Positions 44,059-63,559 of a DNA stretch of 63,559 nucleotides are shown in pieces. The position numbers and the translations under genes are program-made. The notes under the pieces were generated by a model. It was not told the origin of the DNA, did not search any database, and saw nothing but the letters and a program-made list of their open reading frames with translations. The stretch is taken from the sequence record SRR20825006_717; one strand, written 5' to 3'. How positions within the stretch are numbered: position 1 is the stretch's first letter; each line of letters opens with the position of its first letter.

Positions 44059-44656
44059 TTTTAAACTGAAATCCTTCTTCTTTCAGTTGACAAATTAACT
44101 TCGGGAGTAATTCTTGAATTCTTCCAAGCATTTTTTTGTTGTCGTGAAGCACCAAAATGTCTCCTTTTTTGATTCGCTTTGCTTGATTAAGAATCAAACT
44201 AATGGCAACGGAATCGTCATAATCGTAAGAGAGCCACGACCACATAATGATTTTGTATTTCTTAGCAATGCTTCGCGTATAAGACATCGGTAATCTTCCG
44301 TAAGGCGGTCGAAACAACGTTGAAGGAACAAACGCGCTTGCTTTCTCAATTGAATTCAAATACTCCTGTTTAGAAACCTTTGTTCCTTTCTCGTGCTTCA
44401 TGGTGTGATTTCCAATGGCGTGACCTCGATCTATGATTTTCTGAATGAGTTGCGGATGTTTTTGTGCATTTGCTCCAACGCAGAAAAAGGTTGCCCGCAC
44501 GTCGTGGTCTTCCAAAACGCCCAAAATCCAATCCGTTAATTCTTCTGTGGGACCATCATCGAAAGTTAGGTAAACGCACTTTTCACTCATAGAAAAACCC
44601 CAACGTCTTCTAGGAAAAATCCATCGAAAAACAGTTGGGGTTCTAAAGAGTTTCAC
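44045..44656 (-). CDS. Polysaccharide deacetylase (CE4/NodB)
   Basis: LTFDDGP, GNHTMKH, FRPPYG, IVLHD-like motif. Confidence 0.92.
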   Translation of the reverse strand: MKLFRTPTVFRWIFPRRRWGFSMSEKCVYLTFDDGPTEELTDWILGVLEDHDVRATFFCVGANAQKHPQLIQKIIDRGHAIGNHTMKHEKGTKVSKQEYLNSIEKASAFVPSTLFRPPYGRLPMSYTRSIAKKYKIIMWSWLSYDYDDSVAISLILNQAKRIKKGDILVLHDNKKMLGRIQELLPKLICQLKEEGFQFKTISA

Positions 44657-44686
44657 GCCTTTTAGTTGTTATCTATAGCGCTAAAA

Positions 44687-47600: not shown

Positions 47601-48826
47601 ACCTCGGAACCTGGAACATCCTTTGCATAAGACTTCGCTCTTGCTTCATCTTTATATGCTTTCACATCCAAACCGCCTTTGGAAACAACGAATCTTCTTA
47701 AATAAAATGGTGATTGATCTTTAAATTCACGTCCGTTATTCAACTCAGAATTCCAGTATTGTCCAAAGAAAACAGGTGCTGAACCGTATTGCTCACGTTT
47801 AAGGTAAGCGTGCAATGTTACTAAGTTCTCCGGATCATTCTCATCCAACGGAGTATTTGCGTTCGATCGAATAACAATAACTGCGAATGATCCATATCCT
47901 ATTAGCAATAGTACGAACCCCATCATTGCGGAGTACAAAATCTTTTTCCCTTTCTTTCTTGAGTAACGAAGAAGCCAAACGCATAGTACTGCAATAAACA
48001 CGAAGAAGAAAATCGTTCCTGAGTAGAATGGAAGTCCCAAAGAATTCACAAACGACACCTCGAAAGAGGAAGCTAATGAAACAATTCCTGGAATTACGCC
48101 TTCTTGAATAAATCCAAGAATAATAATTGAAAGCACTCCTACTCCAAAAATTCCGAGCACGTTTACTTTGGATGAATATCTGAAGTAAATTACATACGTA
48201 ATTGCCGGCACTACAAGGATTCCCAATAAGTGGACTCCAATTGCTAGTCCAAGAAGGAACATAATTAATAACAACCAACGATCAGGTGAAAGTCCTTTCA
48301 TTTGCAAGCGGCCGTATTGTACTTCCATCATTTCTTCGTCCCAACGCAAAATCGCCCAAAAGATGACTGCTGTAAACAACGATGACATCGCATATACCTC
48401 ACCTTCTACGGCTGAGAACCAGAAAGATTCAGAGAATGCATAAGACAGCGAGCCTATAACAGCACTTCCGAAAATGGCAATTTGATCACCTTTACTTAGT
48501 TCTGCTCTTGTTTTGAGGATCATTTTCTTAACTAGAATGCTAATCGACCAGAACATAAACAGAATGGTGGTGGAACTGGACAGCGCTGAAAGTCTGTTAA
48601 TCCACACGGCCACATTTTCAGGATCGGCAAAGAAAGAGAACAAACGTCCGAGTACCATAAACAGCGGCGCACCTGGTGGGTGACCCACTTCGAGCTTGTA
48701 AGCTGCAGTAATATACTCGCCACAATCCCAAAGACTGACAGTATCTTCTATGGTTAAGAAGTAAATAATGGTGGCTACCAAAAACACGAATAACCCTAGG
48801 TAGAGGTTTATTTTTCTATAATTCAT
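44687..48826 (-). CDS. DUF2723 GT-C glycosyltransferase (TMEM260-like)
   Basis: WDCGEY, HPPGAP, AVEGEVY, REQYG, PRERDY, GDNDTFPLWY; many TMs. Confidence 0.88.
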   Translation of the reverse strand: MNYRKINLYLGLFVFLVATIIYFLTIEDTVSLWDCGEYITAAYKLEVGHPPGAPLFMVLGRLFSFFADPENVAVWINRLSALSSSTTILFMFWSISILVKKMILKTRAELSKGDQIAIFGSAVIGSLSYAFSESFWFSAVEGEVYAMSSLFTAVIFWAILRWDEEMMEVQYGRLQMKGLSPDRWLLLIMFLLGLAIGVHLLGILVVPAITYVIYFRYSSKVNVLGIFGVGVLSIIILGFIQEGVIPGIVSLASSFEVSFVNSLGLPFYSGTIFFFVFIAVLCVWLLRYSRKKGKKILYSAMMGFVLLLIGYGSFAVIVIRSNANTPLDENDPENLVTLHAYLKREQYGSAPVFFGQYWNSELNNGREFKDQSPFYLRRFVVSKGGLDVKAYKDEARAKSYAKDVPGSEVTEKYFMSNESVRENTVATYSQTTFFPRMYWSQEAPKVDGYKNWSGYDASVDKGTPIGSDGQRLPTFGENLTYFFNYQVNWMYWRYFMWNFSGRQNDIQGHGDAMRGNWISGFSAIDDTRLGDQGEAAPYFTKDNPSHNTFFFFPIILGLIGLVFHFYRAPKDAFVLLLAFLFTGLAIVVYLNQKTFEPRERDYAYAGSFYFFAFWIGIGVYALYEAFRSFAKKEFVGIAILGGASTLFFLFLNALGGMELTSTLGWLFIFIIGAIAIGSMTGLRKVLKSDSQGASVATALCFVVPMIMGVQGWDDHDRSLKTSAHDLAMNYLTSCGQNGIIFTNGDNDTFPLWYMQEVEGKRTDVRVCNLSLMQTDWYTDQMKLKAYKSEPLPIKFTEDQILMYAGSTDQVLFSDLFELFYGNSGIDPNATIKISPEVLKDIIRMRAKTNLPIVRAQLGNLASKSASIMASFSGANAKTQGRLNTIRGKFATAPDSKATIDQITNDIFDKYQMTMEIFGAFKRGAITGDNATIQAFQKEMMEFQKPWDFTNLADAMDFVRNDAHLIKYQGQRSLRIFPSSGFIFPVNVNNAVKSGVITKDQKTKCLKELRFSFDARGITREQVMMLDIMANNNWKRGLYFSSPGGSDVSMALYRSGFIKQNGLVFEVSPLDMPRDRFSESMYDNLMNYSYGEMSNPNVLTDYYTRRHTSQYRGHFLSLAEDLLAKAMQGENDLERMKMLEGLGENANPAMAGFKPSATEAEIKSYKKKAIDLLNHSLKVMPADVVIDWSDPSRVRIPSDNYELNGVTVPAYTDGVLQDYVAVLFQAGDKKAAEKLATTLADQMESIFNYFEMSDVSIAASPSNTKDFYAAMDIYFRIHAAVMDEETGVPNSKLASRMSGKINDLFNNIRPSMINRLKDLANENGESMRRGSNAGRYANYMFELQDYFDAIGIHFGLMKPVQQQPMQPSAPAPQLPGQPGM

Positions 48827-49006
48827 ACGCAGTATTTATGCATGCCATTTTGGAAAGATCCAGCTTTGGCTTGTGCGAATTTAAAAATAATCAACCAGCA
48901 TGTGCAGAACAGGAAGTGAAAAAATGTCAAATTTAACGCCTTTTATTTTTTTTTGCCAGAAGTGCATTTTTTTTGCTGTTGTTTTTGGCGTTTTCAATAT
49001 TGTTGC

Positions 49007-49014
49007 TACATTTG
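49007..49014 (+). promoter_or_regulatory. -7 promoter box of tRNA-Gln
   Basis: TACATTTG, with a TTTG -33-like element at 48984-48987. Confidence 0.75.
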
Positions 49015-49057
49015 CACCCGCAACTGATTTTAGAAGTTGTTAAGACAGTTGTGAAAC

Positions 49058-49130
49058 TGTCCTATGGTGTAACTGGCAACACGTCGGTTTTTGGTACCGA
49101 AGAGTCTAGGTTCGAGCCCTAGTGGGACAA
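49058..49130 (+). tRNA. tRNA-Gln(TTG), CCA not encoded
   Basis: Acceptor stem TGTCCTA/TGGGACA, anticodon arm TCGGT-TTTTGGT-ACCGA, T arm CTAGG-TTCGAGC-CCTAG. Confidence 0.96.
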
Positions 49131-49141
49131 CATTTCGTTGT

Positions 49142-49176
49142 AAAAACCCCTGAGAAATCAGGGGTTTTTGTTTTTA
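49142..49176 (+). terminator. Intrinsic terminator after tRNA-Gln
   Basis: AAAAACCCCTGA-GAAA-TCAGGGGTTTTT followed by Ts. Confidence 0.88.
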
Positions 49177-49406
49177 TAGTGCTTAATTTGGTGCTGAAAA
49201 TGTAAGTTGTTTCTCAATTATCATCAACGAGTTTCGTTTGGGATCATGTTGGATAGGTTTGAGAAAAGGGATTGTATTAAAAAATGCACTTCTCAGAAAG
49301 TTATTAGAGGAAGAGTAGGTCATCATTATTGTTTCGTTTAAAATATAAGGTAAAAATCTACACTTCAGTATTCCGTAAATTCGTCTAGTACAAAATAAAC
49401 TAAGGG

Positions 49407-52400
49407 CTATTGCACTCCCACAATACAACACGCTATTTTACTATCCACATCTTCTGTAATTCTCGTATTATTGAGAATTCTGATTAAATCATTCATTTGA
49501 AATACAATTTTACGATCATCCTTTAAGTTAGATAGGTTCATGATTTTCTTTTTCCTGCCCTGATTTGCTCTTTTATTATTTAATAATGGTTGAAGTAGTA
49601 AAATCCAGTCATCAGCAAAATGTTCGTAATCGATAATAAAATCCGGCGCTTTGGCAAATAGACCCAATAAGCGCTGTATTGACTCTTTCTCCTCATAAGA
49701 AATTTCTTTACGTTTTTTTTGCCGAAGTAAAATAGCATGGGCAACCTCGAGAGCTCTTTTCTTTTTCGGAGGTAACAAGTCACGTTCCATTCTTTTAAAA
49801 TGGTTTATGTATGCTTGCAACGATTGCTGCTGCCATTTCAGTTGTTCCGATTTCCTGGTGATGTGATGTCGTAATTGTTGACATATATCGGGTAAATCTG
49901 TGTGAATGTTATTTTCATGATCGATAAAATACCAACGAGGGCTACGTTTCTGATCTCCTTTTAAGGCAATGAAGCACCAATTTGTTTCACTTCCTACAAA
50001 AGAAACCCTCGTTCTAATGGAGGATCGAACTTCTTTAAATTGATTGTAGAAATCTGTTGTAATGAGTGGTTTTTTTCCTTCTTTCAACTCTACAACAGCC
50101 TGAAAACTATCACTAAAACCGCTCCACGACTCATCCTTATCCTCAAATTGTTTGTACTCATCGATAATGTTTTCAATCGAATCTATTTTTTCGAAATGCT
50201 TATCTTTTAGTTCTTCGGGAATATTAATGTTAGCACCGTAAATTTTATCTACAATAGCATTCGTGTCCACAATTCGTTTATCTGCCTTGAGTGAATATTC
50301 TTCAGAGTCATTCGGCCAGTAAATTTCAATTTCTTTATGAAGACTGTCCATTCTATCAGCTCTACCGATGCGTTGTTCCACGATGCGAAGTACACTTGGA
50401 AGATCTAACAGAACAACAGCTGAGGCTTTTTGTAAGTCAACACTTTCCGACATTTTATCTGAGCATAGTGCAATCATTCCGTCTTTAGATTCAGAAGTAA
50501 GACTGAATACCTCCATGACGCGTACACTTTCTTTGTCTTTTTCACTTCCCGTTGCGATCAAAAGTTTGCGGTCTGGATATAATTCAGAGAAAAGCTTCCT
50601 CAAATAATAGAGTGTGATGACCGTACTGTCGAAGGCTAAAACGAATGAATGTTTTTTGTGAATTCTTACTAGTTCATCTAACTTCCCTTTCTCTCTTTCT
50701 CCAGATAATTGCTTGGCAAGTGCAGCTATTTCCTTATAAATCCTTAAGTCATTTTTAGCTGCTTCTGCATATTGGTCCAAATTCGTTAACCAATCGGGGA
50801 AGAATTCAGATTTAAAAATAGAACTTTTGTATGGTAATTGATTTCTACTAATGATCTTTTGAATAGCAGCAATTTTATCTCCTGAAGTATTTGATTTACC
50901 TGAAAATTTGAAATATTCTTGCGCACTTTTTGTTCCTTCAATGTGCTCAACAAGTGCTACATGAGACGAACGCAATGCCGCACGGATTTGATAAACACAC
51001 AAAGCTTTCCCAGCATTGATTCTATTGTCGATATAAGATTTTTTGCTTTCTTCTTTCGAAATGTCAAAATCAGGTTTATTAAATTTAGTAAGATGTGTCA
51101 CTCCTTTAATCTCTGATGCCAAATCATTTATTTGGTCAACAATTATTTTGTCCTTATCAGTTTCTTTTGTCTTATATGTTTTTTCTAGTTGTTTCGGAAA
51201 TTTACAAACCTTATCCAAGCGATTTCGGTATCTCTCAGGTTCCTTCTCTATTTCAATATTTAATGCTCGCTTGGTTCTTCTGACTGTAAATTTGCTGATG
51301 AAATTGCGTAACTGATCAATGTGTTGATCGCTTCGTTTATTTCGCTTTTGAACCAAATTGCAATAATCAATAAAATGATCATCACTCAAATTGTCTACAT
51401 CCAATAATTCGATTAATTGTAACAGGTCTTCTAAACGTTTACTAATCGGAGTTGCCGTGACCAAAATTTTAAAATCTGCATGATTCTTTTTAATTGTTTC
51501 GGTACGATTAGAATGTGGAGATAAGTAATTGTGCGCTTCATCAATTGTCAGGATTTTAGCAATCTCCAGGTTTCCAATAATTTCTTTTCGTCTGGCTTCC
51601 CCGGAATTACTTAGAATACCCATAGATTCCACTTCACAAATTCGCTTTTGAGATCGAAACTCCTCTTTCCATTTTCCCACTACTAGCGGAGGACAAATTG
51701 CTAAAGCGTTGGTATGATGGTTTCTTCCTGATTCAAACAACCAGTGTTGCAAGGATAAAACGAGTGAAGTACACATTTTGGTTTTACCAGCACCTGTTGG
51801 GTCTGCTATCAAAACATTAGACTGACTTTGCAAAATAGTCATGGCCTGAGCCAAACCTTTCCATTGTGTCGGCCATAATTTGGCATTTTGTAGCTTTTCC
51901 AAAATCTCTCGGTAGGATTCTAACCATTCTCCTTCTAAAATTTCTGAAATGGCTCTAGCTAAAGCTTCTTCCCAAGTAACTTGCTGAATCAAGTTTTGAA
52001 GTAGTTCAATGATTTTTTGATTATAATCTACCGAATCTTCCCAATAACTTTCGCCAATCAGCTTAATATCATTGTACTGTTTTTGCTCGTGTTCGTCATT
52101 CTTACAAACCCGAATATTTGCTTCATCTTGCTCATTCAGACCATTCTTGCTGAAATTGGACGAGCCAAGGACTGCATAGTTGTCTCCAACAAATAGTTTA
52201 GCGTGTAATCGATCCTTGAATTTAAACTGCACATCTTGCCGATTAATCTTTTCAATAAGGTTCATTACAGCCCCACCTAACATGACGGAAAGCCCTTTCT
52301 TGATCCAGTATTCTTTGATTTCTTTATCCAATTTAACCATCGGATATTTTTTTCGACCACGCATATTTGGTTCAAAACCAATCAGAATACGCACCTTTTT

Positions 52401-52613
52401 CAATTTCTCAAATTCCTGCGAACCAAAAAAATCAATTAAGTTAGACAAAGAAGTAAATCCAGTCAAAATCAAGTATTCTTCGCTTTCCTTGATGTCATTA
52501 TAGACAATAGTTTGAACCCTCCGTTTGTAAGCAGACAGGTTGAGCGGAAAATTTTCTTGTTCTGGCCAACGGTGGGCATCGAAGCTTATTTCTATTTGAT
52601 TTAAGTCCGTCAA
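49407..52613 (-). CDS. PLD-like nuclease fused to an SNF2-related SF2 helicase
   Basis: LHAKLFV...GSSNFS...EAN (single HxK PLD motif); ADPTGAGKT, DEAH, TATP, EQRIGRADR; TTG start. Confidence 0.88.
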   Translation of the reverse strand: MTDLNQIEISFDAHRWPEQENFPLNLSAYKRRVQTIVYNDIKESEEYLILTGFTSLSNLIDFFGSQEFEKLKKVRILIGFEPNMRGRKKYPMVKLDKEIKEYWIKKGLSVMLGGAVMNLIEKINRQDVQFKFKDRLHAKLFVGDNYAVLGSSNFSKNGLNEQDEANIRVCKNDEHEQKQYNDIKLIGESYWEDSVDYNQKIIELLQNLIQQVTWEEALARAISEILEGEWLESYREILEKLQNAKLWPTQWKGLAQAMTILQSQSNVLIADPTGAGKTKMCTSLVLSLQHWLFESGRNHHTNALAICPPLVVGKWKEEFRSQKRICEVESMGILSNSGEARRKEIIGNLEIAKILTIDEAHNYLSPHSNRTETIKKNHADFKILVTATPISKRLEDLLQLIELLDVDNLSDDHFIDYCNLVQKRNKRSDQHIDQLRNFISKFTVRRTKRALNIEIEKEPERYRNRLDKVCKFPKQLEKTYKTKETDKDKIIVDQINDLASEIKGVTHLTKFNKPDFDISKEESKKSYIDNRINAGKALCVYQIRAALRSSHVALVEHIEGTKSAQEYFKFSGKSNTSGDKIAAIQKIISRNQLPYKSSIFKSEFFPDWLTNLDQYAEAAKNDLRIYKEIAALAKQLSGEREKGKLDELVRIHKKHSFVLAFDSTVITLYYLRKLFSELYPDRKLLIATGSEKDKESVRVMEVFSLTSESKDGMIALCSDKMSESVDLQKASAVVLLDLPSVLRIVEQRIGRADRMDSLHKEIEIYWPNDSEEYSLKADKRIVDTNAIVDKIYGANINIPEELKDKHFEKIDSIENIIDEYKQFEDKDESWSGFSDSFQAVVELKEGKKPLITTDFYNQFKEVRSSIRTRVSFVGSETNWCFIALKGDQKRSPRWYFIDHENNIHTDLPDICQQLRHHITRKSEQLKWQQQSLQAYINHFKRMERDLLPPKKKRALEVAHAILLRQKKRKEISYEEKESIQRLLGLFAKAPDFIIDYEHFADDWILLLQPLLNNKRANQGRKKKIMNLSNLKDDRKIVFQMNDLIRILNNTRITEDVDSKIACCIVGVQ

Positions 52614-52624
52614 CTTATTTTATG

Positions 52625-54928
52625 TTAATTATTCTGGATCACATTTTTGAGGTTTATACCTCTCTCCGTTAAATCATAGTTTTTGAACTTATATCGCATA
52701 AATGCTGACATCATATCTTCATGAGTTGACATTATTATCTGATTATCTCGAAATTCATTTCTAAGAAGATCTATAAATCCATACATGTTAAGTTCATCCA
52801 TAGTCTGAACTGGGTCATCAATAAGTACCAACTTGTTTTGTGAGTACTTTTTATGAAGTGCTAGAGTGAAAGAAATGATAAGAGCAGAAAGTTGTCCCGA
52901 ACTCATCGTGAAAATGGCATCATAAGTTTTGTTCGAATCTGTTTGGAATCTTATTCCGTCCTTTTCAGAAAAAATAAACAATCCAATTCCCCCTTGAAAA
53001 AACTGCATAATCCGTCCAGAGTAAATATGGAATATTGTTTCTATATCCTTTATTATCTTATTCTGATATGATTTTAACGAGCTAGCATATCGATTTTTCA
53101 GTTCTTTCAGTTGCCTACCAATAACTTTAGCATCATCTCGTTTTTTTGCAGTCTCAACTAATTTTATTGTGTTATCTCTAAGTAGCAAATTTTGATTTAG
53201 GTACCATTTGTGCTTTATATATGACTTCTTCTGATCAAGATTCTCAACTGAAAATGAATCCAGTGTCCCAAATACATTATTGAAATAATCTTGAAAATAG
53301 TCTTGAAAAAATGTCTCTATTAAATCTTCTCCTGACTCATCCTTAAAGGCTTTAATATCAAGTTTAAATTTTTCAACTAATTCGGAATGGTCGAGGTTTT
53401 GGTCAATGCCTGAATATTCTGTGTAGTCAATTTTAAGAAATTCAAGATTTTTTATAATATCATTGAAATGGTGTTGCTCCAAAATAAGTAGCCGAGACAC
53501 AAAGTCACTATCGTAGTTATAAGATGATATTTTTTCCTTTAAAAGGCGAATTACTTCAACCACTATTTCAGCCTTGAATTTATCCAGTAATTCCTGAAGT
53601 GTATTGCTTTTATCCGAATTGATTTTCGCAATTTGTTCGGTCTTATTTTCAATTTGACGAATTAATTCTTCTATACTCCCCCAATTGTATCCACAAAAAA
53701 GACAATCACTTTGATTTACTCCTTCTTCTCTTAATTGTGTAAGTTCGGTCGAAAGTTCACCTCTGGATCTAGAAATATCGGAGTAAATTTTATCCAACCC
53801 CTTGAGTTCCCTATAGCCGCTGATTAGTTCTAACTTAGTCCGTTCAAATAATTCTCTAAGTTCAATGGAGATAAATTCGTATGGTTGAAGATCAATAGCC
53901 TGTTCCAGGTTGCTACTGTTAAATGATTCTAGAACTTTAATTATTTCCTGAATAGTTGATACACTATTGCGCATTTCCCTAAATTCCTCCTTTCTAGGTA
54001 AAAAAGTATAATGCTTTATTAAATCAAATATCGTCTGGTCCTTTTCAAGGATTGCATCTACCGCTTTATTTTTTTGATATTGCTTGAAAAGCTCTTTCCT
54101 TTCAACCAAAATTTTTACACGTTGAAAAAAACCGTCTTGACCAATCAGTTCAGCATAATTAAATTGACTAAAATCAAGTTCCTCGTTATCCCATAAATAG
54201 TCATTTTGAGCAAATAATCGAACATAACTAGTGGGAGTCGCTTCATTCGTCTCACTCTCTCTAAGCAATTTTATGATTTTTTCTAACTCATCGGCTTCTG
54301 CATTGGCAGAGTCGTGAATAGAATCTACTTTCTTGCGTAAATCATCAATTCGTTTAACCTTGATTTCAAACTCCTTAAGATCAAACAAATGGCTAATGTG
54401 ACCTTTTCGCTCTTTGTCCGAATGTTTTAAAAGAAAGAGACTATCCTCCTGTTCCACATAGTTCAAGAATTGAAAATTTGAACTATACTTTTCACCTAAT
54501 AAATCAGCTAAAAATGTTTTTTCATCTTCAACCAAAGTTCTTTCCTCGGAATCAAACTCGGATTTTACAAAGAGTTTGTATATAGAAAAATCAATGGATG
54601 AATCAATACTCTCTGCTTTCACAAATCGTTCAAGTACGTGAACCTTATCAGCTTTTTGAAGTTCTATTGTTATCACAATATCACTGTTTTGAGCTTCAAC
54701 ATTATAAAAGGGATTCTCCGAGAAGGATTGTCTACCATCAACAATTTTCGATTTGAGAGCATTATATCTACGGATCTTCCCAGTTAATCCAAGTTCAATG
54801 GAGTCATAAACAGTTGTCTTACCGAAGCCATTAGGACCATCAAGAATAACTATATCTGAAGACTTGAAGTCTATTATAATATCCTTAAAAACCTTAAAAT
54901 TCTTTATTCTAATTTTCTGGATTTTCAT
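52625..54928 (-). CDS. lmuB: Rad50/SbcC-like ABC ATPase, Lamassu/ABC-3C LmuB
   Basis: Walker A GPNGFGKT, Q-loop YVEQ, coiled coil with CLFC hook, MSSGQ signature, IDDPVQTMD, STH. Confidence 0.8.
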   Translation of the reverse strand: MKIQKIRIKNFKVFKDIIIDFKSSDIVILDGPNGFGKTTVYDSIELGLTGKIRRYNALKSKIVDGRQSFSENPFYNVEAQNSDIVITIELQKADKVHVLERFVKAESIDSSIDFSIYKLFVKSEFDSEERTLVEDEKTFLADLLGEKYSSNFQFLNYVEQEDSLFLLKHSDKERKGHISHLFDLKEFEIKVKRIDDLRKKVDSIHDSANAEADELEKIIKLLRESETNEATPTSYVRLFAQNDYLWDNEELDFSQFNYAELIGQDGFFQRVKILVERKELFKQYQKNKAVDAILEKDQTIFDLIKHYTFLPRKEEFREMRNSVSTIQEIIKVLESFNSSNLEQAIDLQPYEFISIELRELFERTKLELISGYRELKGLDKIYSDISRSRGELSTELTQLREEGVNQSDCLFCGYNWGSIEELIRQIENKTEQIAKINSDKSNTLQELLDKFKAEIVVEVIRLLKEKISSYNYDSDFVSRLLILEQHHFNDIIKNLEFLKIDYTEYSGIDQNLDHSELVEKFKLDIKAFKDESGEDLIETFFQDYFQDYFNNVFGTLDSFSVENLDQKKSYIKHKWYLNQNLLLRDNTIKLVETAKKRDDAKVIGRQLKELKNRYASSLKSYQNKIIKDIETIFHIYSGRIMQFFQGGIGLFIFSEKDGIRFQTDSNKTYDAIFTMSSGQLSALIISFTLALHKKYSQNKLVLIDDPVQTMDELNMYGFIDLLRNEFRDNQIIMSTHEDMMSAFMRYKFKNYDLTERGINLKNVIQNN

Positions 54929-55598
54929 CTGATAGTATTGATTTTAATTTTTCAAAAACTTCTTCCTCAGTTATGCTGTTGAAATTTTCATCTGAAAGGA
55001 CGAAGAAATCATTTATTAGTAATTCGTTTAATTGATTGTTTTGAAGTGATCGGTTATTGATTTCCTCTAGCGAATTAAGATTATTCGTCTCTTTAGCATT
55101 GATTTTAATAAATGGAATTTTTATCGCCATTCTATAGATCAGTGATTCAAAATCGTTCTGATCAAACTGTTGTTTGTGAACTTCAAATATTTTTTCATCC
55201 AGAATCATAGACTCTATTGTAGCCAGTGCTGTAGAATCACCAATAACTTGAATCAAATTTGTCTTTTCTTCATTTGTGTAATAAAGAATGTTCTTTTTAA
55301 AATGATAAGGATTTTCTTCAATTTTTAGCAAAAGATCCGCATTCATATTCTCTAAGGAATCAACCTCAATCAGTATTAATAAATTTGCATTCTTGTCAAA
55401 AGTTGGGTCTTGAACAATCTTCTTTGAATCGATAAAGATTTCGGCTTGTTGATCTGGGATTTTCGCAATTTCATCTACATCTGATTGAATAATTATCCAA
55501 TAGTTTTTGTGATTTCCGTGACCAAAAATTTTAAACTCTGAATTCTCTATTTCTTGAAGATTTGCTTCCTGAAATATCTTTGCTATTAAATCAATCAT
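54909..55598 (-). CDS. lmuC: ABC-three-component middle component (LmuC-like)
   Basis: FDKNANLLIL...IEENPYHFKKNILYYT and KIPF motifs; sits between effector and ATPase with overlapping ends. Confidence 0.72.
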   Translation of the reverse strand: MIDLIAKIFQEANLQEIENSEFKIFGHGNHKNYWIIIQSDVDEIAKIPDQQAEIFIDSKKIVQDPTFDKNANLLILIEVDSLENMNADLLLKIEENPYHFKKNILYYTNEEKTNLIQVIGDSTALATIESMILDEKIFEVHKQQFDQNDFESLIYRMAIKIPFIKINAKETNNLNSLEEINNRSLQNNQLNELLINDFFVLSDENFNSITEEEVFEKLKSILSDENPEN

Positions 55599-56892
55599 TT
55601 AATTTGTCTTTTGCTTTTTCAATATCAATGAGGCTTACCTTTTTCCATTTCGTTATGTTATTGCGTCTTTCTTCATTCCCTATTTGGATATCAGAGTCAT
55701 CGAGCTGAGTTATGTTGTTCGCGTAAGCTTCCATGTCTGTAACATTGCACTCTGAAGTAACCAGAAAGTCGGAGTTAAATGGTACTGAAACATTCGTAGT
55801 TAAAGCACTATTTAGAATCTTCTCACACAATCTTTTTTTACTCTTATCCGAATCAGAATTATTAATTGATGTCGGATAATAATGTTTTCCATCTGAACAA
55901 ATCCATCCCCACGTATTTCCATTATTTGACTCTTTGATTTCTGACAAAATCAGAAAAAATGCGTCTTTAATTTCTACTTGATCTAAACTAGTATCCTTAT
56001 AACCAACTAAGTCTGAATAATTGATAACCTTGTGTGGGGTGATGTTTTGTAAAAAGGATTTAAAGTTGTCCAGTTTTAGCGCATTGAATTGAAACAAATA
56101 GGTGTTCATACGCAGTTTTGTTTCGTCTGACCAATCTTGACCATCAAATTCCACATAAAACTCTTGATAGTATCTGTTGAGATCAATTTTTAGTCGATCC
56201 TGAAAGTAAATTTCATTTTGAATAGTAACCGTTTCGTCTTTTATTGCTTCAAGAAATTCAGTGAATGGGATCACTGTTCTGAAAGCAGCTTCACGAATTG
56301 GAGTTCCTTGATGATTTAGAGAATGTATTTCAACGACTATATCAGATATTTTCTTCTCAAGAATCTGATATTTATTTTTTTTCAGGTCGTCATTTGTTGC
56401 TCCTGCAAAACCTTCGTTTTGAAGAATTGTGCCAATATTTTGGAAGATGTAATTATCAATCTTTGATAAAGCGCAGAACTCCTCTTTATTTTCATACGTG
56501 TATATCTTCAAATCGGGGTGTCTTATTTCAATGCTGGATTTCGACTCTACGTTTTTTGAAGCTAAATGAAAGTAAGCCGTCACTTCACTATTTTGTTTTG
56601 CTGCTTCTTTTTTTTTCTTTTCCAACTGCTCAAAATCATCCTTGTAGGTTGAATAAGCAGTGCTTTTAACAGCCTTAACTTGATGCATAGTGAGTGGTAC
56701 AATATTTTTATTCTCATCATACTTTACAATTGAAAAATCATCTATTGAATCAATTTGTAAGAACCATTGATCACAATCAGCTTCGTCTTCTTCATTAAGA
56801 AGTTTTAACGTGTGATAGAGCGCAATACGACCTTGATAAATAAACCCACTCCATGTTGGGATCGCAGTATGTGGAAATTTTTCTTCTGACAT
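55591..56892 (-). CDS. lmuA: Cap4-like PD-(D/E)xK nuclease effector with C-terminal domain (LmuA)
   Basis: AIPTWSGFIYQG, DSIDDF, HQVKA motifs in the N-terminal domain. Confidence 0.75.
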   Translation of the reverse strand: MSEEKFPHTAIPTWSGFIYQGRIALYHTLKLLNEEDEADCDQWFLQIDSIDDFSIVKYDENKNIVPLTMHQVKAVKSTAYSTYKDDFEQLEKKKKEAAKQNSEVTAYFHLASKNVESKSSIEIRHPDLKIYTYENKEEFCALSKIDNYIFQNIGTILQNEGFAGATNDDLKKNKYQILEKKISDIVVEIHSLNHQGTPIREAAFRTVIPFTEFLEAIKDETVTIQNEIYFQDRLKIDLNRYYQEFYVEFDGQDWSDETKLRMNTYLFQFNALKLDNFKSFLQNITPHKVINYSDLVGYKDTSLDQVEIKDAFFLILSEIKESNNGNTWGWICSDGKHYYPTSINNSDSDKSKKRLCEKILNSALTTNVSVPFNSDFLVTSECNVTDMEAYANNITQLDDSDIQIGNEERRNNITKWKKVSLIDIEKAKDKLND

Positions 56893-56902
56893 AATCTAGT
56901 TT

Positions 56903-59900
56903 TTATTCCCAACTCCCCATCACCAAACTACCCTTCTCCGGATCATTGGCAATAGTCAAATAGGCATCTATTTCTTGTTGTAATTCTTCTACATGCGAGA
57001 TCACGCCCACAATCCGATTTTCTTGACGCAATGCTTTTAAAGATTCAAAGACTATTCGCAAAGATTCTTTGTCCTGTGAGCCGAAACCTTCATCAAGGAA
57101 AAAGAAATTTTGGTTGGATTTACTTTGTTGTGGAATGCTTTCAGCCAATGCCAGTGCCAAACACAAAGAAGCTTGGAACGTTTGTCCACCTGAAAGCGTT
57201 TTCACACTTCGCAATCTTCCTTCATTCAGATAATCCCGAATTTGAAAGTTATTTCCTCCAGTGAGTTCCAATCGCAATTGTTGTTTCGTGAGTTTATAAA
57301 ATCGCTCATTTGCCGCTTCACATAATTGTTGGAGGTAAACGGACGAAATGTAATTCACAAACCCACTTGCCGAAAACAAACGCTTTAAGGTTTGAATATT
57401 GGTTTTGCGGTGTTCACGTTTTTCGGCATCGGAAATAACTTGTTTTTTAACAATCCATTCCTCTTTTAACTTATTCAGCAAAGTCTCAGCTTCAATACGA
57501 GCTGTATTTTGTCCATCTAAATCCAATTTCAATTGTTGGACACTGCTTAACAGATTAACATATTTTTCCGGATCAACTGTTTTTCCAACCAATGCCTTGT
57601 TGAGGGTTTCTAACGTTGCATTAACACTAAATAGCTGTTGTTGAAAATCAGTGATTTGCTGTTTGACAATTGGAAGGTCTATATCCAAAGCGAGCGTTTT
57701 TTCCACTTCAATTCGTTGCGAAAACAGATTACTATCTGATAAGCTTGTTTCAATTCGTTCGCCAAGCCCTGTGAGTTCCTTATTTAGTCGGGTTATTCCC
57801 TCCTTTGCTGCATTGTAAGTAGCTGTTGAACTGGCTTTGTCTATTTTGTTTTGCTGAATCCGGTTGGTAAGCAACAGATGTTTCTTTTCAGTTTCTGATA
57901 TAAAGAGATTCAGAGCATCTATTTTTTCTTGGATAGTTACCTCATCCAATACAAAGGCCGTTTCATCTAATGTCTGAATTTGTCCTTTCAGCATGGATTG
58001 GTTACTCGTTTCTATCTTGATTTGCGTATTTAACTCGTTCAATTCGTCTTTTATCGTTTCGTAAGAACCTGTTGCCAATCGCAGGTTTTCTTCTAGAGTC
58101 CCCAAATCCGTTTCCAGACGTTTTAATTCCTGTTGATTGGTAACCGATTCATGCTGAAGTTTGAGAAAATGATCTCTTTCATCCGGTGAAAATTGAGTCC
58201 AAACGAATGTTGATCGATGCTGACGAATTTGTTCTTCTATCTCCGTAACCTTTGTTTTGAATCCTTGCAATTGATCCATATTATCCTTGAGCCTAGAAGC
58301 TGCAATTTCTAATTGACGACTAGCTTCTGTTATCTTTTGGTATTCTTCGTCAAGCAAAATCAAGTCTCTTTCCGCCTTCTCAATATCTGAAGTAACATTT
58401 TCAATGTGCAACACCTGTGGATGGTCATGAGAACCACACAAAGGACAAGGTTCATTTTCTGCTATTTGTTCAGTAAATACAGCTAATTCAGATTGAAGTC
58501 TTAATTTGTCCAAGGCTTGTTTTAATTCCTTTTCCTTGTTTCGATTACTACGTTCTTCATTTTGAAAGGTTAAAAGGTGGTTTTCAATGATACTATCTGC
58601 TGAAAAAGGGAATCGTTCCGATAGAATTGGAGGAATCAATGAAGGAATTTGTTGCTTTTGCGTTTCAATCTGCTCCTCACAACTTGATAACGATTTTTTT
58701 GCATCCACTAGGTTATTAGTCAAGGCATCAAGTTGAACAAACCAACTTTGTACATTTCCTAATTCCACCGAATCTGGCATTTTCGCTTTCAATTCAGTAA
58801 TCAACCTTTTCTGATTCGTCAATAATTGTTCTGCATTCGTTTTCTTTTCAAGGTTTTTAGCAACTATCTCGGTTTTATCGATTAATCCAAGATTCAGTTG
58901 TTGAATTGTTACTTCTGCCTTTTTAACCAGCAATAGGGTCGTATGATCCTGTTGTTCTTTTCTACGCACGTCCAATTGAGCATATTCTTTCGCTACCACT
59001 TCCAACTGAGGTTCATCTACCTCCAATTGTGCGTTGATTCGTTCCAACTCTGCATTAGCATTTTCAGCATCTTTCTGATTTGATTGAAGTGCCTGTTTTG
59101 CATTTACTTCCTGTTCAAAAAGCCCTTTGAAATGCTGCAAACAATATTCAACTTGATTGACTTGTCTGCTTAATTCATCAATGGATAGTTTTTGAAGATT
59201 TAATTGGTTTAATTCGAGCTGTTTTTGCTTTTGCTCATCCAATTGTTTTTTCAAGTCGGTTAATTCTGATTCTTCTTTTTCAAGACCCGTTAAAGTTATT
59301 TGAGTTTCCCTGTGCTTTTCAACCAAAAGATTTACTTCTTCGGTCTTAGTAGCTATAATTTCCTCTGAAACATGCTCCAATTGAAGCAAACTACCAGACA
59401 ACTGTTGTAGTTCTGCCTCATTTTTCCGTTCCAGCGAAACTGTTTGTTGGTAAAACTCATATTTTTCCAATTGAAAAATTTCTTTGAGCATGTTGGTTCG
59501 CGCAGCATCGCCTAATTGCAAAAACTCCTGAAACTTCCCTTGCGGAATAATAATTGTTCTTCTGAAATTCTCGTAAGACAGACCAATAATTGCCTCTGCC
59601 GTTGTCTCGGGAAAAGGTTCAGGGACTGCTCCGATTAGTTTGTATGCACTCCGTTTAAATGTTCCAACATCTTCAAAATTTTTCCCATTGCGACGACCTT
59701 TTACCACAAATCGATACAATTGTTCATCGTGGTTCAGAAAAGTAAAATCAATCAATAGCTCACTTGATTTCAGATTGAGCATGTTGTAATTTCGATTGTC
59801 ACGGGAATTCATCCTTTCAGTTTCTCCATAGAGAGAAAAAGAGATGGCTTCCAAAATCGAGGATTTCCCTGAACCAACCGTTCCAAAAATACCGAACAAT

Positions 59901-59986
59901 TGTGCTTTCGTTAGTTTTGTGAAGTCAATAACTTGTTCTTCCTGATAAGAATAAAGACCTTTTATGGTAAGTGAGACTGGAATCAT
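56903..59986 (-). CDS. sbcC: SbcC (Rad50-like) ATPase
   Basis: GTVGSGKS, IPQGKF, CPLCGS zinc hook, TLSGGQ, FLDEGFG, VISHV. Confidence 0.93.
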   Translation of the reverse strand: MIPVSLTIKGLYSYQEEQVIDFTKLTKAQLFGIFGTVGSGKSSILEAISFSLYGETERMNSRDNRNYNMLNLKSSELLIDFTFLNHDEQLYRFVVKGRRNGKNFEDVGTFKRSAYKLIGAVPEPFPETTAEAIIGLSYENFRRTIIIPQGKFQEFLQLGDAARTNMLKEIFQLEKYEFYQQTVSLERKNEAELQQLSGSLLQLEHVSEEIIATKTEEVNLLVEKHRETQITLTGLEKEESELTDLKKQLDEQKQKQLELNQLNLQKLSIDELSRQVNQVEYCLQHFKGLFEQEVNAKQALQSNQKDAENANAELERINAQLEVDEPQLEVVAKEYAQLDVRRKEQQDHTTLLLVKKAEVTIQQLNLGLIDKTEIVAKNLEKKTNAEQLLTNQKRLITELKAKMPDSVELGNVQSWFVQLDALTNNLVDAKKSLSSCEEQIETQKQQIPSLIPPILSERFPFSADSIIENHLLTFQNEERSNRNKEKELKQALDKLRLQSELAVFTEQIAENEPCPLCGSHDHPQVLHIENVTSDIEKAERDLILLDEEYQKITEASRQLEIAASRLKDNMDQLQGFKTKVTEIEEQIRQHRSTFVWTQFSPDERDHFLKLQHESVTNQQELKRLETDLGTLEENLRLATGSYETIKDELNELNTQIKIETSNQSMLKGQIQTLDETAFVLDEVTIQEKIDALNLFISETEKKHLLLTNRIQQNKIDKASSTATYNAAKEGITRLNKELTGLGERIETSLSDSNLFSQRIEVEKTLALDIDLPIVKQQITDFQQQLFSVNATLETLNKALVGKTVDPEKYVNLLSSVQQLKLDLDGQNTARIEAETLLNKLKEEWIVKKQVISDAEKREHRKTNIQTLKRLFSASGFVNYISSVYLQQLCEAANERFYKLTKQQLRLELTGGNNFQIRDYLNEGRLRSVKTLSGGQTFQASLCLALALAESIPQQSKSNQNFFFLDEGFGSQDKESLRIVFESLKALRQENRIVGVISHVEELQQEIDAYLTIANDPEKGSLVMGSWE

Positions 59987-61200
59987 AATCTTTCCGCTTT
60001 AATTTCTTGAAACAATGTCAGCAATTCTTCATTCAATGGCTGACCAGTTTTGGTTTGGAAGTAATCTTTAAACAAATCATCCATCTCCTGATTCAGGTTT
60101 ATCGTTTTCCGTTCCGTTGGTTCGCTGCCGACAGTTCGTATTTCGGGAATAATAGCTACAATACCATCGTGTGCTGTCAAAATAGCTTTTCTTTCTGTTG
60201 CCGTCAGATAGCTTTCTGTAACAAGTGTTAGCTCCACTAGTGTATCAGGATGTTGAACGAGCCATTGCAATGCATTCTCTGATCCTTCTGCCCGATAGCG
60301 AATCAATCGCTTTCCGTTATTCAAAGGAATCTGCTCATACTGAATTGGCTTTCCTGGTTCTGCATGAAGAATATTCACAAATTTCTGCTGCTCTGCTTCA
60401 CTAAAACTGTAAGAAAGCGGACTACCTGAATAAACCACAGGACAAGGTAAATCATCCATCTGAAAAGGTCGGTGTAAGTGACCTAATGCAACATACTGAA
60501 TCTGCTCGGGTACATTGGATGTATAAATAGCTTGTGCCCCTCCAACATGATTAATCGGCTTTTCCTCTTCTGGTTCTTCAGGAATCGGCCCACCATTTTT
60601 CACCATAAATAAATGAGTGACTAGAAGGTTTACTCCCTGATTGTCACAAAAGGAATCGGCAAGGTTTTTCCAATGCTCTTCTAAGATTTGTCGTAATTCA
60701 CTTTCCGAATCTTCAATTCCGAGGAATGTCTTCATTCGATACTCATTCGCGTAAGGAGTCAGAATTAACCGAAGAGGAACACCCACATTGGGAAGTTTCA
60801 CTTCAATAAATCCGGGAACAGACTTTGTAACTTCAAGACCAGATTCCAATTGAAACAAAGGAACTGTTGTTGTAGGAAAGCCAGAGAAGACAATTCCACA
60901 CTCTCGTGCTAACGGATCGGGTGCTTCAATGCGCTCAGGTGAGTCATGGTTTCCAGCTATTGCAACAACCAAACGTTTCCCATTATTGGTCAAACACTTG
61001 AGTGTCCTATAAAACAATTCAATTGCCTCTATAGATGGATTGAAGGTATCGAATAAATCACCAGCTACAATAACGGCGTCAACCTCCTGTTTATCTGCAA
61101 TATCACAAATTTCAGCCAAGACGGCCGTTTGCTCTTCCAAACGAGAAAACTGTTCGAGTCGCTTGCCTAAATGCCAATCGGCAGTATGTAAGATTTTCAT
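59983..61200 (-). CDS. sbcD: SbcD (Mre11-like) nuclease
   Basis: HTADWHLG, AGDLFD, GNHDS, LGHLH, YSGSP; ATGA overlap with sbcC. Confidence 0.95.
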   Translation of the reverse strand: MKILHTADWHLGKRLEQFSRLEEQTAVLAEICDIADKQEVDAVIVAGDLFDTFNPSIEAIELFYRTLKCLTNNGKRLVVAIAGNHDSPERIEAPDPLARECGIVFSGFPTTTVPLFQLESGLEVTKSVPGFIEVKLPNVGVPLRLILTPYANEYRMKTFLGIEDSESELRQILEEHWKNLADSFCDNQGVNLLVTHLFMVKNGGPIPEEPEEEKPINHVGGAQAIYTSNVPEQIQYVALGHLHRPFQMDDLPCPVVYSGSPLSYSFSEAEQQKFVNILHAEPGKPIQYEQIPLNNGKRLIRYRAEGSENALQWLVQHPDTLVELTLVTESYLTATERKAILTAHDGIVAIIPEIRTVGSEPTERKTINLNQEMDDLFKDYFQTKTGQPLNEELLTLFQEIKAERL

Positions 61201-61683
61201 TTAAAAAATTATAGAAAGGAATAATAAGTTATTTTGGATTACCTCGAATAAGATATGATAATTTGATAGGGTTTTATTTGGTTCAATTTATTAGGTTAAG
61301 CCACTCATCTCAGGATTCCTGATCTATTCTTATCAAATACCGTCTCATCATCAATTTGAGCCCGCAAGAATAAAGCTTATTCTCGGCTCAATAAACTCAA
61401 AGTATACTCATGTAGTAGTTAACTATTCAAGGGTTTTGCATTGGTTGAAGTTTTTGTTGCAAACAATGACGCAATTAAATCTCAATCCATCAATAGTATT
61501 TTCCGCAAAAATGACTGCGGGAAACCATAATTCTTTCTAAAGAGGAGGTGAGTCGAAAAAGCAACTGTAAACTCGAGAATTCAATTCAGAATAAATTCTG
61601 TAGAAAATAACTCATCCAAGATCACCCTAGCAAGAGACTATTGCAATCTCCAAAAAAAAGCAATCTATTTTCAAGCTTTCTTT

Positions 61684-62028
61684 CTACCCAAAAAAACAAC
61701 CATACTCATCCTCTTCGATAGTTTCTATTATTTTTTAAATATTCATCGAAATTGAAAGCGGTTCGTACAATTCCCATTTTCCACTTGCTCGCATCCAATA
61801 CAATTTCCAGACATTCTGCGATTTTACGAATGTGATTTTCGCAAATGGGTTTTGCATTATTTCATCTAGATTATCCCAAACAGGTCGAATTTCGTGTAAT
61901 TCAAAATTCTTACCATCGTACGCATAGCCAAGGTCTACTTGCTTTCTAACTTCAACGTCAACGGGGCGAATACGTTCGATAAATGATTTTATATACGATT
62001 CATTGATGTCCAACACTCTGTCTTCCAT
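61684..62028 (-). pseudogene. DUF3024 protein with a premature in-frame TAA
   Basis: AKITF...WKLYWMRASGKWELYEP; TAA at 61735-61737 is followed in frame by KIIETIEEDEYGCFFG-TAG. Confidence 0.8.
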
Positions 62029-62156
62029 GATCTATTTTTACTCCTTTACGTCATTTCTCATCAAGTCCGATTCTTTCCAAAGCTGCAATGGATTTTCACT
62101 TTGAAACATCAATAATTCATCTATACCTAGACCTTACATCTGACTCGTAGTATCAA

Positions 62157-62639
62157 CTATTTAAGTAGCTCTTTTAGCTTTGAAACTTCATCCTCATTCA
62201 GAAACTCAAACACCCTAATATTGAAGTCCTCTATTTCCACATTAGAGTTGGTTAAATGATAAGTAGTCGGTGAAAAGAATTTTTTATCATTCTCGACATC
62301 TTCTATTAATCTAACTCTCGTATAGACATTTTTCAAGTTATTATCTGGTTCGGTAATCCCCAAAGGAGGATTGTCGTTTGCAGGCAGCTTCCGAAATTCA
62401 TCGGATGTGAGGAATTCAAGTAACTTATTATTAAAGTCATCAATATTCACGGAAAAATCCGTTCTCTTTTGATTCAAAAAAACATCTCCTTCTTGATCAA
62501 TGGTAATGCTGTTCCAAGTGGTTTGATCAGAAATCTTTGACCACGAAATTATGTGCATTTTGTAGAGCCTTGAACTACTATCTTGAGCTATTAACTGACT
62601 GTAAAACGCGAATGCTAAAACTGTAAGAATTGTCTTCAT
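62157..62639 (-). CDS. Secreted hypothetical protein
   Basis: MKTILTVLAFAFYSQLIAQ signal peptide. Confidence 0.7.
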   Translation of the reverse strand: MKTILTVLAFAFYSQLIAQDSSSRLYKMHIISWSKISDQTTWNSITIDQEGDVFLNQKRTDFSVNIDDFNNKLLEFLTSDEFRKLPANDNPPLGITEPDNNLKNVYTRVRLIEDVENDKKFFSPTTYHLTNSNVEIEDFNIRVFEFLNEDEVSKLKELLK

Positions 62640-62692
62640 TATTATGGTTAAATAAAATAAATTGTCACTTAGCTTTTGTTTGGGATACTTTA

Positions 62693-63361
62693 TTACAACT
62701 GTGATCGTATTATGGATGAAAGCTTCTTTTCACTCAAATTAGCTTTCAATTGTTCCATAAATGATTCACGGTCATTCGATATGTCTTCCAATTTCCCTAA
62801 CCAATCATTCAAACTTCCATACCACATTTCGAACATTCGTAAATCCCAATTTTTAGAGTTGCTTTTTATCAGGTTCAAAACATCTTTAACTTGGGTTTGA
62901 TTACCAATGAATAATGTAAGATAAAGTTTCAACTCAGATAGCTTCGCCAATTGATTCGAATTTGATCTTATCAAAATATCCAACGAATAATTATCAATGA
63001 TTTGAAAAACTTGATCAACAGTTATTTTTTCATCAAAAATGATTTGAAATTGTTGATTTAAGCAATGTATAGCTTCCATGAAATAATCATTATGATTGAG
63101 ATATGGAATTGAAAACTGTACTCCCTTTTTATTGTGTAATTCAATTAAAACAATTGGACTCTCAAAGCAACTCTTCACATCCTTTTTCCAAAGTGGATAA
63201 ATTACAAAATGAGGTCTATAATGATCAAACCCTTTTACTTTAATCAGTTCAACTCCAATAACACAGCATCCAGTTGTCTTGTAGAATTTGTTAGATGAAA
63301 ACATTGATAGTAGAGGAAGTGCCAAATTCCAATCCTCTGCTATTTTTTTTATTTGACTCAT
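62693..63361 (-). CDS. Hypothetical protein
   Basis: 222-aa ORF with ATG start, no recognisable catalytic motif. Confidence 0.7.
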   Translation of the reverse strand: MSQIKKIAEDWNLALPLLSMFSSNKFYKTTGCCVIGVELIKVKGFDHYRPHFVIYPLWKKDVKSCFESPIVLIELHNKKGVQFSIPYLNHNDYFMEAIHCLNQQFQIIFDEKITVDQVFQIIDNYSLDILIRSNSNQLAKLSELKLYLTLFIGNQTQVKDVLNLIKSNSKNWDLRMFEMWYGSLNDWLGKLEDISNDRESFMEQLKANLSEKKLSSIIRSQL

Positions 63362-63559
63362 GTTGTGCTTCTTTCTACTAAGATCTAATTATTTGAATTG
63401 GTAAGCCAAAAATTCGCGAATGTTTTGCAAACTGAGTAGCGCTCATCAGAAATTCACCGTTTCGATTTGTAGTATATGACCGTTGGTAGAAAGTTAACAG
63501 ACATTACACGAAGCATAAAACCTGCTGAGTTTTTCAAAAAACTACTTTCTAATCAAGCA

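Follow-up and report, generated by a model that had tools for sequence, protein, structure and literature searches.

The DNA stretch SRR20825006_717, whose full length of 63,559 nucleotides (nt) we refer to as the window, carries at positions 49407–61200 six intact, co-oriented open reading frames (ORFs) on its minus strand, encoding an SbcCD nuclease pair, a Lamassu system (lmuA, lmuC, lmuB) and a PLD-SNF2 helicase. We propose that this is a modular defence island built on a conserved anchor, an accessory sbcDC pair, with a slot directly downstream of sbcC that accepts interchangeable defence cassettes; we consider this somewhat probable, and it is the explanation we favour. The six genes would then be three separable modules in one probable transcription unit, co-transcription being suggested by their spacing. 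The features of the unit are as follows.

59983..61200, minus strand: sbcD, Mre11-type phosphoesterase nuclease, 405 amino acids (aa); Metallophos, TIGR00619
56903..59986, minus strand: sbcC, Rad50-type ABC ATPase with zinc hook, 1027 aa; AAA_23, SbcC_Walker_B
55591..56892, minus strand: lmuA, Lamassu effector with putative Cap4-like N-terminal nuclease domain and ABC-3C CTD1, 433 aa; PF20276, PADLOC LmuA
54909..55598, minus strand: lmuC, ABC-3C middle component 1, 229 aa; PF20289 MComp1
52625..54928, minus strand: lmuB, long-type Lamassu Rad50-like ATPase, 767 aa; PADLOC LmuB PDLC03859
49407..52613, minus strand: PLD (single HKD)-SNF2 helicase fusion, apparently a separable single-gene module, 1068 aa; PLDc_2, SNF2-rel_dom, Helicase_C
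52584..56906, no strand: proposed exchangeable cassette slot, here filled by lmuACB; replacement in a contig of run X3 and lower GC (guanine plus cytosine) content than both flanks

From sbcD to the helicase the junctions are a 4-bp overlap, a 10-bp gap, an 8-bp overlap, a 20-bp overlap and an 11-bp gap. The ORF list gives the co-orientation and these five sizes exactly as in the first-pass annotation of this DNA; profile searches and ORF coordinates bear out its gene identities and tight operon-like packing, and every catalytic or nucleotide-binding motif that we sought is present, so its description of the core motifs as intact stands.

Cassette exchange behind sbcC

Comparison of public metagenome contigs with positions 44000–63559 of the window provides an instance of cassette replacement. 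A contig of 22,485 nt from run X3 matches the helicase over 49422–52583 (207 other letters and 2 gaps in 3,162, about 93% identity) and sbcC and sbcD over 56907–61197 (398 other letters and 4 gaps in 4,291, about 91%), with 2,243 other letters standing where the window has the 4,323-nt lmuACB stretch. One joint coincides with the stop codon of sbcC, the other falls about 30 nt into the helicase gene from its start, and the outer 8.4 kb and 4.3 kb of the contig have no match to the window flanks among the matches listed. The size of 22,485 nt is also that of the longest contig listed for SbcC P0121, which is 92% identical to the SbcC of the window. Runs X1 and X4 gave short or diverged pieces only, from which we draw nothing. 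The GC content of lmuACB (29–33.5%) is lower than that of sbcDC (37.5–41%), of the helicase (36%) and of the first 44 kb of the window (39%), and in the Pedobacter aquatilis locus L009 lmuACB likewise falls below its flanks.

The slot holds other systems elsewhere. With the long SbcC of L009 as query, 37 of 401 genomes of a second order gave a match, 19 of them at 41% identity or more, and 18 of these loci were examined, one contig ending too soon. A recognised defence system lies directly behind sbcC and co-oriented with it in ten of the 18. Two of these systems are Lamassu of the CTD1 type; the others are DUF4297-HerA followed by Hachiman (L134), an Old-like gene with an MkoC-like gene (L135), Gabija with a NACHT protein (L136), PDC-S06 with a DUF4011 helicase-nuclease (L137), PDC-S06 (L138 and L141), a second Lamassu type with CTD2 and an LmuB of 986 aa (L139), and PDC-S06 with Gabija (L144). 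L140 has two small ORFs without assignment behind sbcC, and seven further loci have housekeeping or unassigned neighbours. In a tree, the SbcC proteins of Lamassu-bearing loci and of loci with other cargo are interleaved, which implies turnover of the cargo behind nearly identical sbcDC. In 20 control loci from two orders, whose long SbcC is more distant, no defence system of the cargo kind was found behind sbcC; three have a PADLOC match nearby (Cas6b, a Fic protein and a PIF1-like helicase).

Some genes behind long sbcC deserve separate mention. Directly behind sbcC at L180:229-5977 lie two large ORFs in the same orientation, of 1211 and 710 aa, for which Pfam and PADLOC gave no match; they are candidates for unknown defence cargo. 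Small ORFs between sbcC and the Old-like gene at L135:9301-9747 (148 aa), and between sbcC and the PDC-S06 gene at L141:9307-9825 (172 aa), may be unrecognised partners of those ATPases.

Recurrence of the gene block and two SbcCD lineages

The linkage of sbcDC to this type of Lamassu recurs. LmuA homologues were aligned and loci drawn from species genomes (30) and metagenomes (26); 18 loci whose LmuA is at least 46% identical to that of the window form what we call the close clade, reduced to 17 by dropping L043 as a duplicate of L001. In 13 of the 17 an sbcD-sbcC pair lies directly upstream of lmuA and co-oriented with it, whereas among the 36 loci of distant clades that gave an LmuA match, several of them with short flanks, SbcC lies upstream in one (L062). 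A fourteenth close-clade locus retains a relic: at L044:8739-9206, on a contig of 982,823 nt, SbcD residues 1–121, with a frame break, are fused to the last 40 residues of SbcC, and an intact lmuACB stands about 0.8 kb downstream. The remaining three lack sbcDC (L002, L053 and L042, the last with just 1.4 kb of upstream flank). Ten close-clade loci have a downstream flank of 3.3 kb or more, and in four of them the helicase lies 3′ of lmuB; in L006 and L009 it adjoins lmuB, and in L001 and L003 an nSTAND3 gene intervenes. Because the helicase stands directly behind lmuB in L009, that locus has the same six genes, and its overlaps within lmuACB are again 8 and 20 nt; the possibility raised in the first-pass annotation that the arrangement is unique to this genome does not hold, for sbcDC or for the helicase. 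In L006 an Old-like gene lies between sbcC and lmuA. The Lamassu-linked sbcC is the sole SbcC match in four of five genomes searched.

Decay is also seen in related loci, with SbcC split into two ORFs in L005 (2297-6026) and LmuA split by a frame break in L007 (10001-11294). The locus L008, from a record labelled as a Legionellaceae metagenome-assembled genome, has an sbcD 80% identical to that of the Pedobacter locus L009 and an lmuACB that groups with Bacteroidota loci in trees, which reflects either a recent transfer or a binning error.

The SbcCD pair of the window is not, however, orthologous to those of the related Lamassu loci, in which SbcC is about 1244 aa long and SbcD is 25–28% identical to that of the window. 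In a tree of ATPase heads the SbcC of the window falls among canonical SbcC (about 1020 aa), and the others form a separate long-SbcC clade. Canonical sbcDC pairs occur in 31 of 401 genomes sampled from one order, with housekeeping neighbours; LmuA or the helicase was found within 1.5 kb in none of 30 such loci, and of 21 downstream ORFs scanned nine encode a convergent luciferase-like monooxygenase and one is defence-related (HsdM, in L096).

Relatives of the window's own sub-lineage appear to carry the same partners. In the following contigs the pairing of two proteins is inferred from equal contig sizes, the proteins themselves having come from protein searches; identities are to the window.

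8,953-nt contig: SbcC 88%, LmuA 65%
11,427-nt contig: SbcC 56%, LmuA 72%
38,099-nt contig: SbcC 54%, LmuA 86%
22,906-nt contig: LmuA 69%, helicase 88%
8,967-nt contig: LmuA 79%, helicase 93%
32,772-nt contig: SbcC 54%, helicase 71%
66,597-nt contig: SbcC 53%, helicase 69%

Upstream of sbcD, L003 and L009 have serine recombinases, L006 a relaxase and L001 a type I restriction subunit; the same region holds a tyrosine integrase in L045, Gabija together with an AAA_21/RloB pair in L041, and in L046 a HigB-like gene accompanied by an M78 peptidase. Judged by this gene content, the sbcDC-Lamassu loci appear to be mobile, defence-rich neighbourhoods.

The three modules and their surroundings

Enzymes of the SbcCD family cleave hairpins and blocked DNA ends. 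The SbcD of the window scores 179.2 bits against TIGR00619, above the cut-off of 77.65, matches Metallophos in the profile search and has the motifs D8xH10, GD47, GNH85D and GH241LH; it is 51–56% identical to the sbcD products of the chromosomal sbcDC pairs in the order sample. SbcC, with 209.8 bits, stays under the curated TIGR00618 cut-off of 478.5, matches AAA_23 and SbcC_Walker_B, and has a complete set of motifs, with Walker A at 35, a CPLC hook at 514, LSGG at 931 and the Walker B sequence FFFLDE at 961. Over its full length it is 34–37% identical to the chromosomal SbcC of the order.

The Lamassu assignment made in the first-pass annotation is confirmed by PADLOC matches for LmuA and LmuB, the gene order lmuA-lmuC-lmuB, and the MComp1 and CTD1 domains. 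LmuA matches CTD1 (PF20276, E 1.6e-44, residues 129–382), a domain of the ABC-3C systems that Krishnan et al. reportedly defined in 2020. Upstream of this domain D52 and HQVK at 70–73 are present, D52 and QxK at 71–73 being invariant in the homologue alignment. PF14130, the Cap4/DUF4297-type domain, was not reported for the LmuA of the window at E ≤ 0.001, and is precomputed in three homologues. An AlphaFold model of LmuA (mean pLDDT 74) has as its best Foldseek hits Cap4 6vm5 (E 5.7e-3), HamA, LmuA 9nxx and HerA-DUF4297, and an LmuA profile run against the sequences of solved structures gave no match. As the Foldseek matches are all weak, with none at E ≤ 0.001, the Cap4 nuclease assignment of the N-terminal domain is likely but not proven. 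The lmuC gene, placed between lmuA and lmuB, encodes a protein with MComp1 (PF20289, E 6.2e-13) that is 55–59% identical across related loci. LmuB matches PADLOC PDLC03859 (E 7e-65) and has Walker A GPNGFGKT at 31, a CLFC hook at 409 and Walker B LVLIDD at 700; its closest solved sequences are Rad50 heads. Haudiquet et al. (PNAS 2025, PMC12663957) give the Walker B of long Lamassu LmuB as hhhhDD, which is the form of LVLIDD.

The same paper derives Lamassu from SbcCD. We considered whether the adjacency of lmu genes and sbcDC is a relic of the founding duplication. A tree of 84 ATPase heads, from a quick search and with long branches, places LmuB as one long-branch clade to which no SbcC subgroup is specially close, and this explanation is unsupported.

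The helicase has the motifs HAKLFVGD at 137, GAGKT at 274 and DEAH at 358, and matches PLDc_2, SNF2-rel_dom and Helicase_C. Membership of DISARM or Dpd was rejected: its scores are far under the family cut-offs (63 bits against 610 for DrmD NF038317, 62 against 500 for DpdE NF041062, and DpdK likewise below), and DrmA, DrmB, methylase or dpd genes were not found among the ORFs scanned around the unit (43.6–63.4 kb). The gene is present in four of 401 genomes of the order, one being G001, the source of the Lamassu locus L001. Of the others, in L101 it stands alone among lectin-like genes and a gene for an AraC regulator, in L102 it neighbours an HNH gene, a DndB-like gene and a DNA methylase, and in L103 it directly follows GajA-GajB of Gabija. 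It is absent from all 16 sbcDC loci with other or no cargo (L134–L149), which rules it out as a universal far border of the slot. A plasmid collection gave no matches to the helicase, and only LmuA relatives below 30% identity. From these distributions we read the helicase as a self-contained module travelling in defence islands, enriched near this Lamassu clade and not tied to it. As a separate observation, in L102 and L103 it lies on the same side of a conserved TPR-protein gene, directly adjoining in L103 and about 4.4 kb off in L102, with different companions (methylase, DndB-like and HNH genes as against Gabija), which looks like a second variable hotspot.

On the far side of the helicase the unit is bordered as follows.

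49140..49171, no strand: terminator-like hairpin between the operon end and tRNA-Gln, 14 pairs, loop of 4, A and T tracts on either side
49058..49131, plus strand: tRNA-Gln (anticodon UUG), at the border of a low-GC stretch

From tRNA-Gln to the end of the window (49058–63559) the GC content is about 0.31–0.38 in most 1-kb bins, lower than the 39% seen elsewhere, and the low-GC island probably continues past the window end. A direct repeat of the tRNA-Gln 3′ end, as expected of an att site, was not found between 48.9 and 63.6 kb. A sigma-70 promoter scan gave 56 sites against 50.4 in shuffled sequence, no better than chance, with a model that does not cover Bacteroidota promoters. In a collection of exact-sequence clusters, none of ten window proteins was matched. 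An 82-aa ORF at 49183–49431 on the minus strand, overlapping the helicase stop, belongs to no family. The small ORFs that follow the helicase in L006 and L009 are unrelated to it, and the part conserved in run X3 does not include it; we regard it as spurious and probably no gene. Just beyond tRNA-Gln, 44687–48826 on the minus strand encodes a 1379-aa protein with an N-terminal TMEM260-like O-mannosyltransferase domain (E 6e-70). At the other end, about 530 nt upstream of sbcD, lies a 97-aa DUF3024 gene (61735–62028, minus strand; PADLOC candidate PDC-S43, E 3.6e-33), followed by two ORFs without family assignment (62157–62639 and 62693–63361).

Competing explanations and relation to known systems

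If the island is modular, its parts may be pictured as follows. The accessory SbcCD would cut hairpins and blocked DNA ends. The complete long-type Lamassu would, by analogy with solved Lamassu systems, hold LmuA inactive through LmuB and LmuC until LmuB meets the ends or hairpins of replicating foreign DNA, whereupon LmuA would be released, oligomerise and degrade DNA by means of its putative Cap4-like domain. The PLD-SNF2 protein would be a stand-alone helicase-nuclease, probably translocating and acting in its own right. The sbcDC pair would serve as the anchor and, in the lineage of the window, the helicase as the far border of the slot. Each module would be workable separately, with any interplay arising via DNA structures recognised by both SbcCD and the sensors.

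The first-pass annotation had instead proposed a composite defence system, in which SbcCD or the helicase produces or removes the DNA ends that trigger LmuA. Taken strictly, this would make SbcCD, Lamassu and helicase the subunits or steps of one machine, none working properly alone, and the tight junctions without intergenic room are in its favour, as are the same six genes and the same overlaps in L009 and near-identical compositions with one extra gene each in L006, L001 and L003. We nevertheless reject an obligate six-part machine because lmuACB is replaced in the near relative of run X3 that keeps both flanks, because Lamassu persists beside the deleted sbcDC of L044 and without sbcDC in L002 and L053 (sbcDC being missing or deleted in four of the 17 loci), and because the helicase occurs among unrelated neighbours and is absent from six of the ten close-clade loci with enough flank. 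Both partners are moreover lacking in 35 of 36 distant-clade Lamassu loci, and the SbcCD lineage of the window differs from that of the other loci. The comparative data thus largely refute such a machine, to which we give very little credence. A chance neighbourhood, in which a housekeeping sbcDC happens to adjoin an integration site and the adjacency is biologically meaningless, would fit the canonical lineage of the window sbcDC, elsewhere in a stable housekeeping context (the luciferase-like monooxygenase in nine of 21 loci), as well as the adjoining tRNA-Gln and the deviant GC content of lmuACB. We think this unlikely, given the adjacency in 13 of 17 loci as against one of 36 and its presence in two SbcCD lineages. 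It is also opposed by the close LmuA or helicase found with window-type SbcC on the contigs of 8953, 11427, 38099, 32772 and 66597 nt (paired by equal sizes), by the sbcDC-slot-helicase block of run X3 on a contig whose flanks differ from those of the window among the matches listed, and by the rarity of SbcC in the sampled orders with the queries used (31/401 and 37/401).

Several observations weigh against a slot that merely takes whatever cassette arrives. The association of Lamassu with sbcDC is seen in two SbcCD lineages, that of the window and the 1244-aa type, and the link (13 of 17, plus the relic, as against one of 36) is far stronger than a random hotspot predicts. SbcC and LmuB identities co-vary over ten loci (Pearson 0.73, from non-independent pairs) and therefore the block seems to be inherited together over long distances. 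Nine of the ten cargoes behind long sbcC include an ABC-type ATPase (LmuB three times, an Old-like protein once, GajA twice and PDC-S06 four times), and a restriction-modification system lies directly behind sbcC in none of the ten, a skew which may mean that partners of a certain kind are selected. The helicase, too, is in four of ten close-clade loci, though just four of 401 genomes of the order have it.

Among these observations, the two lineages, the long co-inheritance and the ABC-ATPase skew speak for a functional coupling without obligate dependence, in which selection would have paired accessory SbcCD with ABC-ATPase sensors such as Lamassu, Old-like proteins, Gabija and PDC-S06. SbcCD would clear hairpins and ends, keeping abortive sensors silent on host DNA and providing an initial barrier that does not kill the cell; once SbcCD is inhibited or overloaded by a phage, structures would build up and LmuB would fire, so that the sensor could be swapped while the architecture of SbcCD plus sensor is selected. 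The Old-like gene between sbcC and lmuA in L006 and the status of the Lamassu-linked sbcC as sole SbcC match in most genomes searched are consistent with such coupling. So are statements in a preprint (10.64898/2026.07.10.737580), according to which SbcCD counteracts OLD activation by processing single-stranded DNA hairpins, a ΔsbcD host potentiates OLD defence, Gam inhibits SbcCD, and origin hairpins activate Lamassu. By analogy with that work on OLD and SbcCD, it becomes more plausible that SbcCD might make or remove the DNA structures that trigger LmuA, as the first-pass annotation had suggested. On the other side, the sample of related loci is small, and the apparent ABC-ATPase enrichment is unproven relative to the share of such systems among all defence systems of these genomes. 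L134 carries non-ABC cargo (DUF4297-HerA and Hachiman), Lamassu persists after the sbcDC deletion in L044, and the sbcDC of other lineages have mostly housekeeping neighbours, with none of the 20 controls bearing such cargo and one of 21 canonical loci having a defence-related neighbour. We therefore regard coupling as a possibility to be taken seriously, and still as improbable.

Since the cargoes are mostly ABC-ATPase sensors of DNA structure, SbcCD may set the trigger threshold or may be the nuclease for which the docked sensor is the backup, and one might tentatively go further and see accessory SbcCD pairs in Bacteroidota as the fixed front end of a two-tier immunity. SbcCD would then clear hairpins and ends, or be the nuclease that phages have to inhibit, and the docked ABC-ATPase cassette, be it Lamassu (at least two types, or three with the partial locus L062), Old-like, Gabija or PDC-S06, would trigger abortive killing when SbcCD is overwhelmed or blocked, a scheme about which we are doubtful. 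Were it true, Lamassu would still sit beside the kin of its ancestor because their substrates are shared.

Under either the modular reading, which we prefer, or a coupled one, a Lamassu clade in operons behind sbcDC, with a slot that takes other sensors of ends and hairpins, makes the interplay of SbcCD and sensor directly testable, and new defence genes can usefully be sought immediately downstream of accessory sbcDC pairs in Bacteroidota, the ORFs of L180 being one example. If the modules are independent, the locus is a documented hotspot of cassette exchange and a caution against equating tight gene packing with one machine. Lamassu itself is known; what is new is the sbcDC-anchored slot, within the familiar theme of defence hotspots. 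We found no description of sbcDC adjacent to Lamassu or to other defence genes in the literature on Lamassu, ABC-3C, Gabija and defence islands with SbcCD, a search whose scope ended short of the original ABC-3C paper and the supplements of PMC12663957, and the accessible part of the latter article does not mention sbcDC linkage, though Lamassu is derived there from SbcCD.

Compared with SbcCD and Mre11-Rad50 in general, the pair of the window has all SbcD phosphoesterase motifs, the SbcC Walker A and B, signature and zinc hook, and the 4-bp sbcD-sbcC overlap. It differs in that it is accessory, not universal in the sampled orders with the queries used (31/401 and 37/401 genomes), sits in defence or mobile contexts and has an SbcC below the TIGR00618 cut-off. 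The helicase shares with DISARM (DrmD with DrmC) and Dpd (DpdE with DpdK) the joining of an SF2/SNF2 motor with a PLD nuclease, but here they form a single polypeptide with an N-terminal PLD, and the partner genes of those systems are not present. Mokosh type II is a helicase-PLD fusion and thus likewise combines an SF2 motor with a PLD nuclease; here, by contrast, the PLD is N-terminal and the Mokosh partner genes are not present. The locus resembles defence islands and hotspots with cassette exchange in having variable cargo between conserved flanks, replacement at gene boundaries, cargo of deviant GC content, and integrases or recombinases near some loci, but its anchor is a nuclease acting on DNA ends and is itself kin to the cargo's sensor, and the cargo is skewed to ABC-ATPase sensors.

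The P2 OLD system, as presented in the accessible part of the preprint (10.64898/2026.07.10.737580), similarly has an ABC-ATPase sensor of hairpins and ends that is damped by SbcCD, and Old-like genes stand directly behind sbcC in L006 and L135; there, however, chromosomal SbcCD of E. coli acts in trans, and genetic linkage is not described in that part of the text. A further likeness is to long-type Lamassu as given in PMC12663957, with the same lmuA-lmuC-lmuB order, an LmuB of about 770 aa with Walker A, hhhhDD Walker B and CxxC hook, an MComp1-type LmuC, and an LmuA with CTD and, probably, a Cap4-like N-terminal domain. The difference is that here, as in 13 of 17 related loci, the Lamassu operon is fused head-to-tail behind an sbcDC pair.

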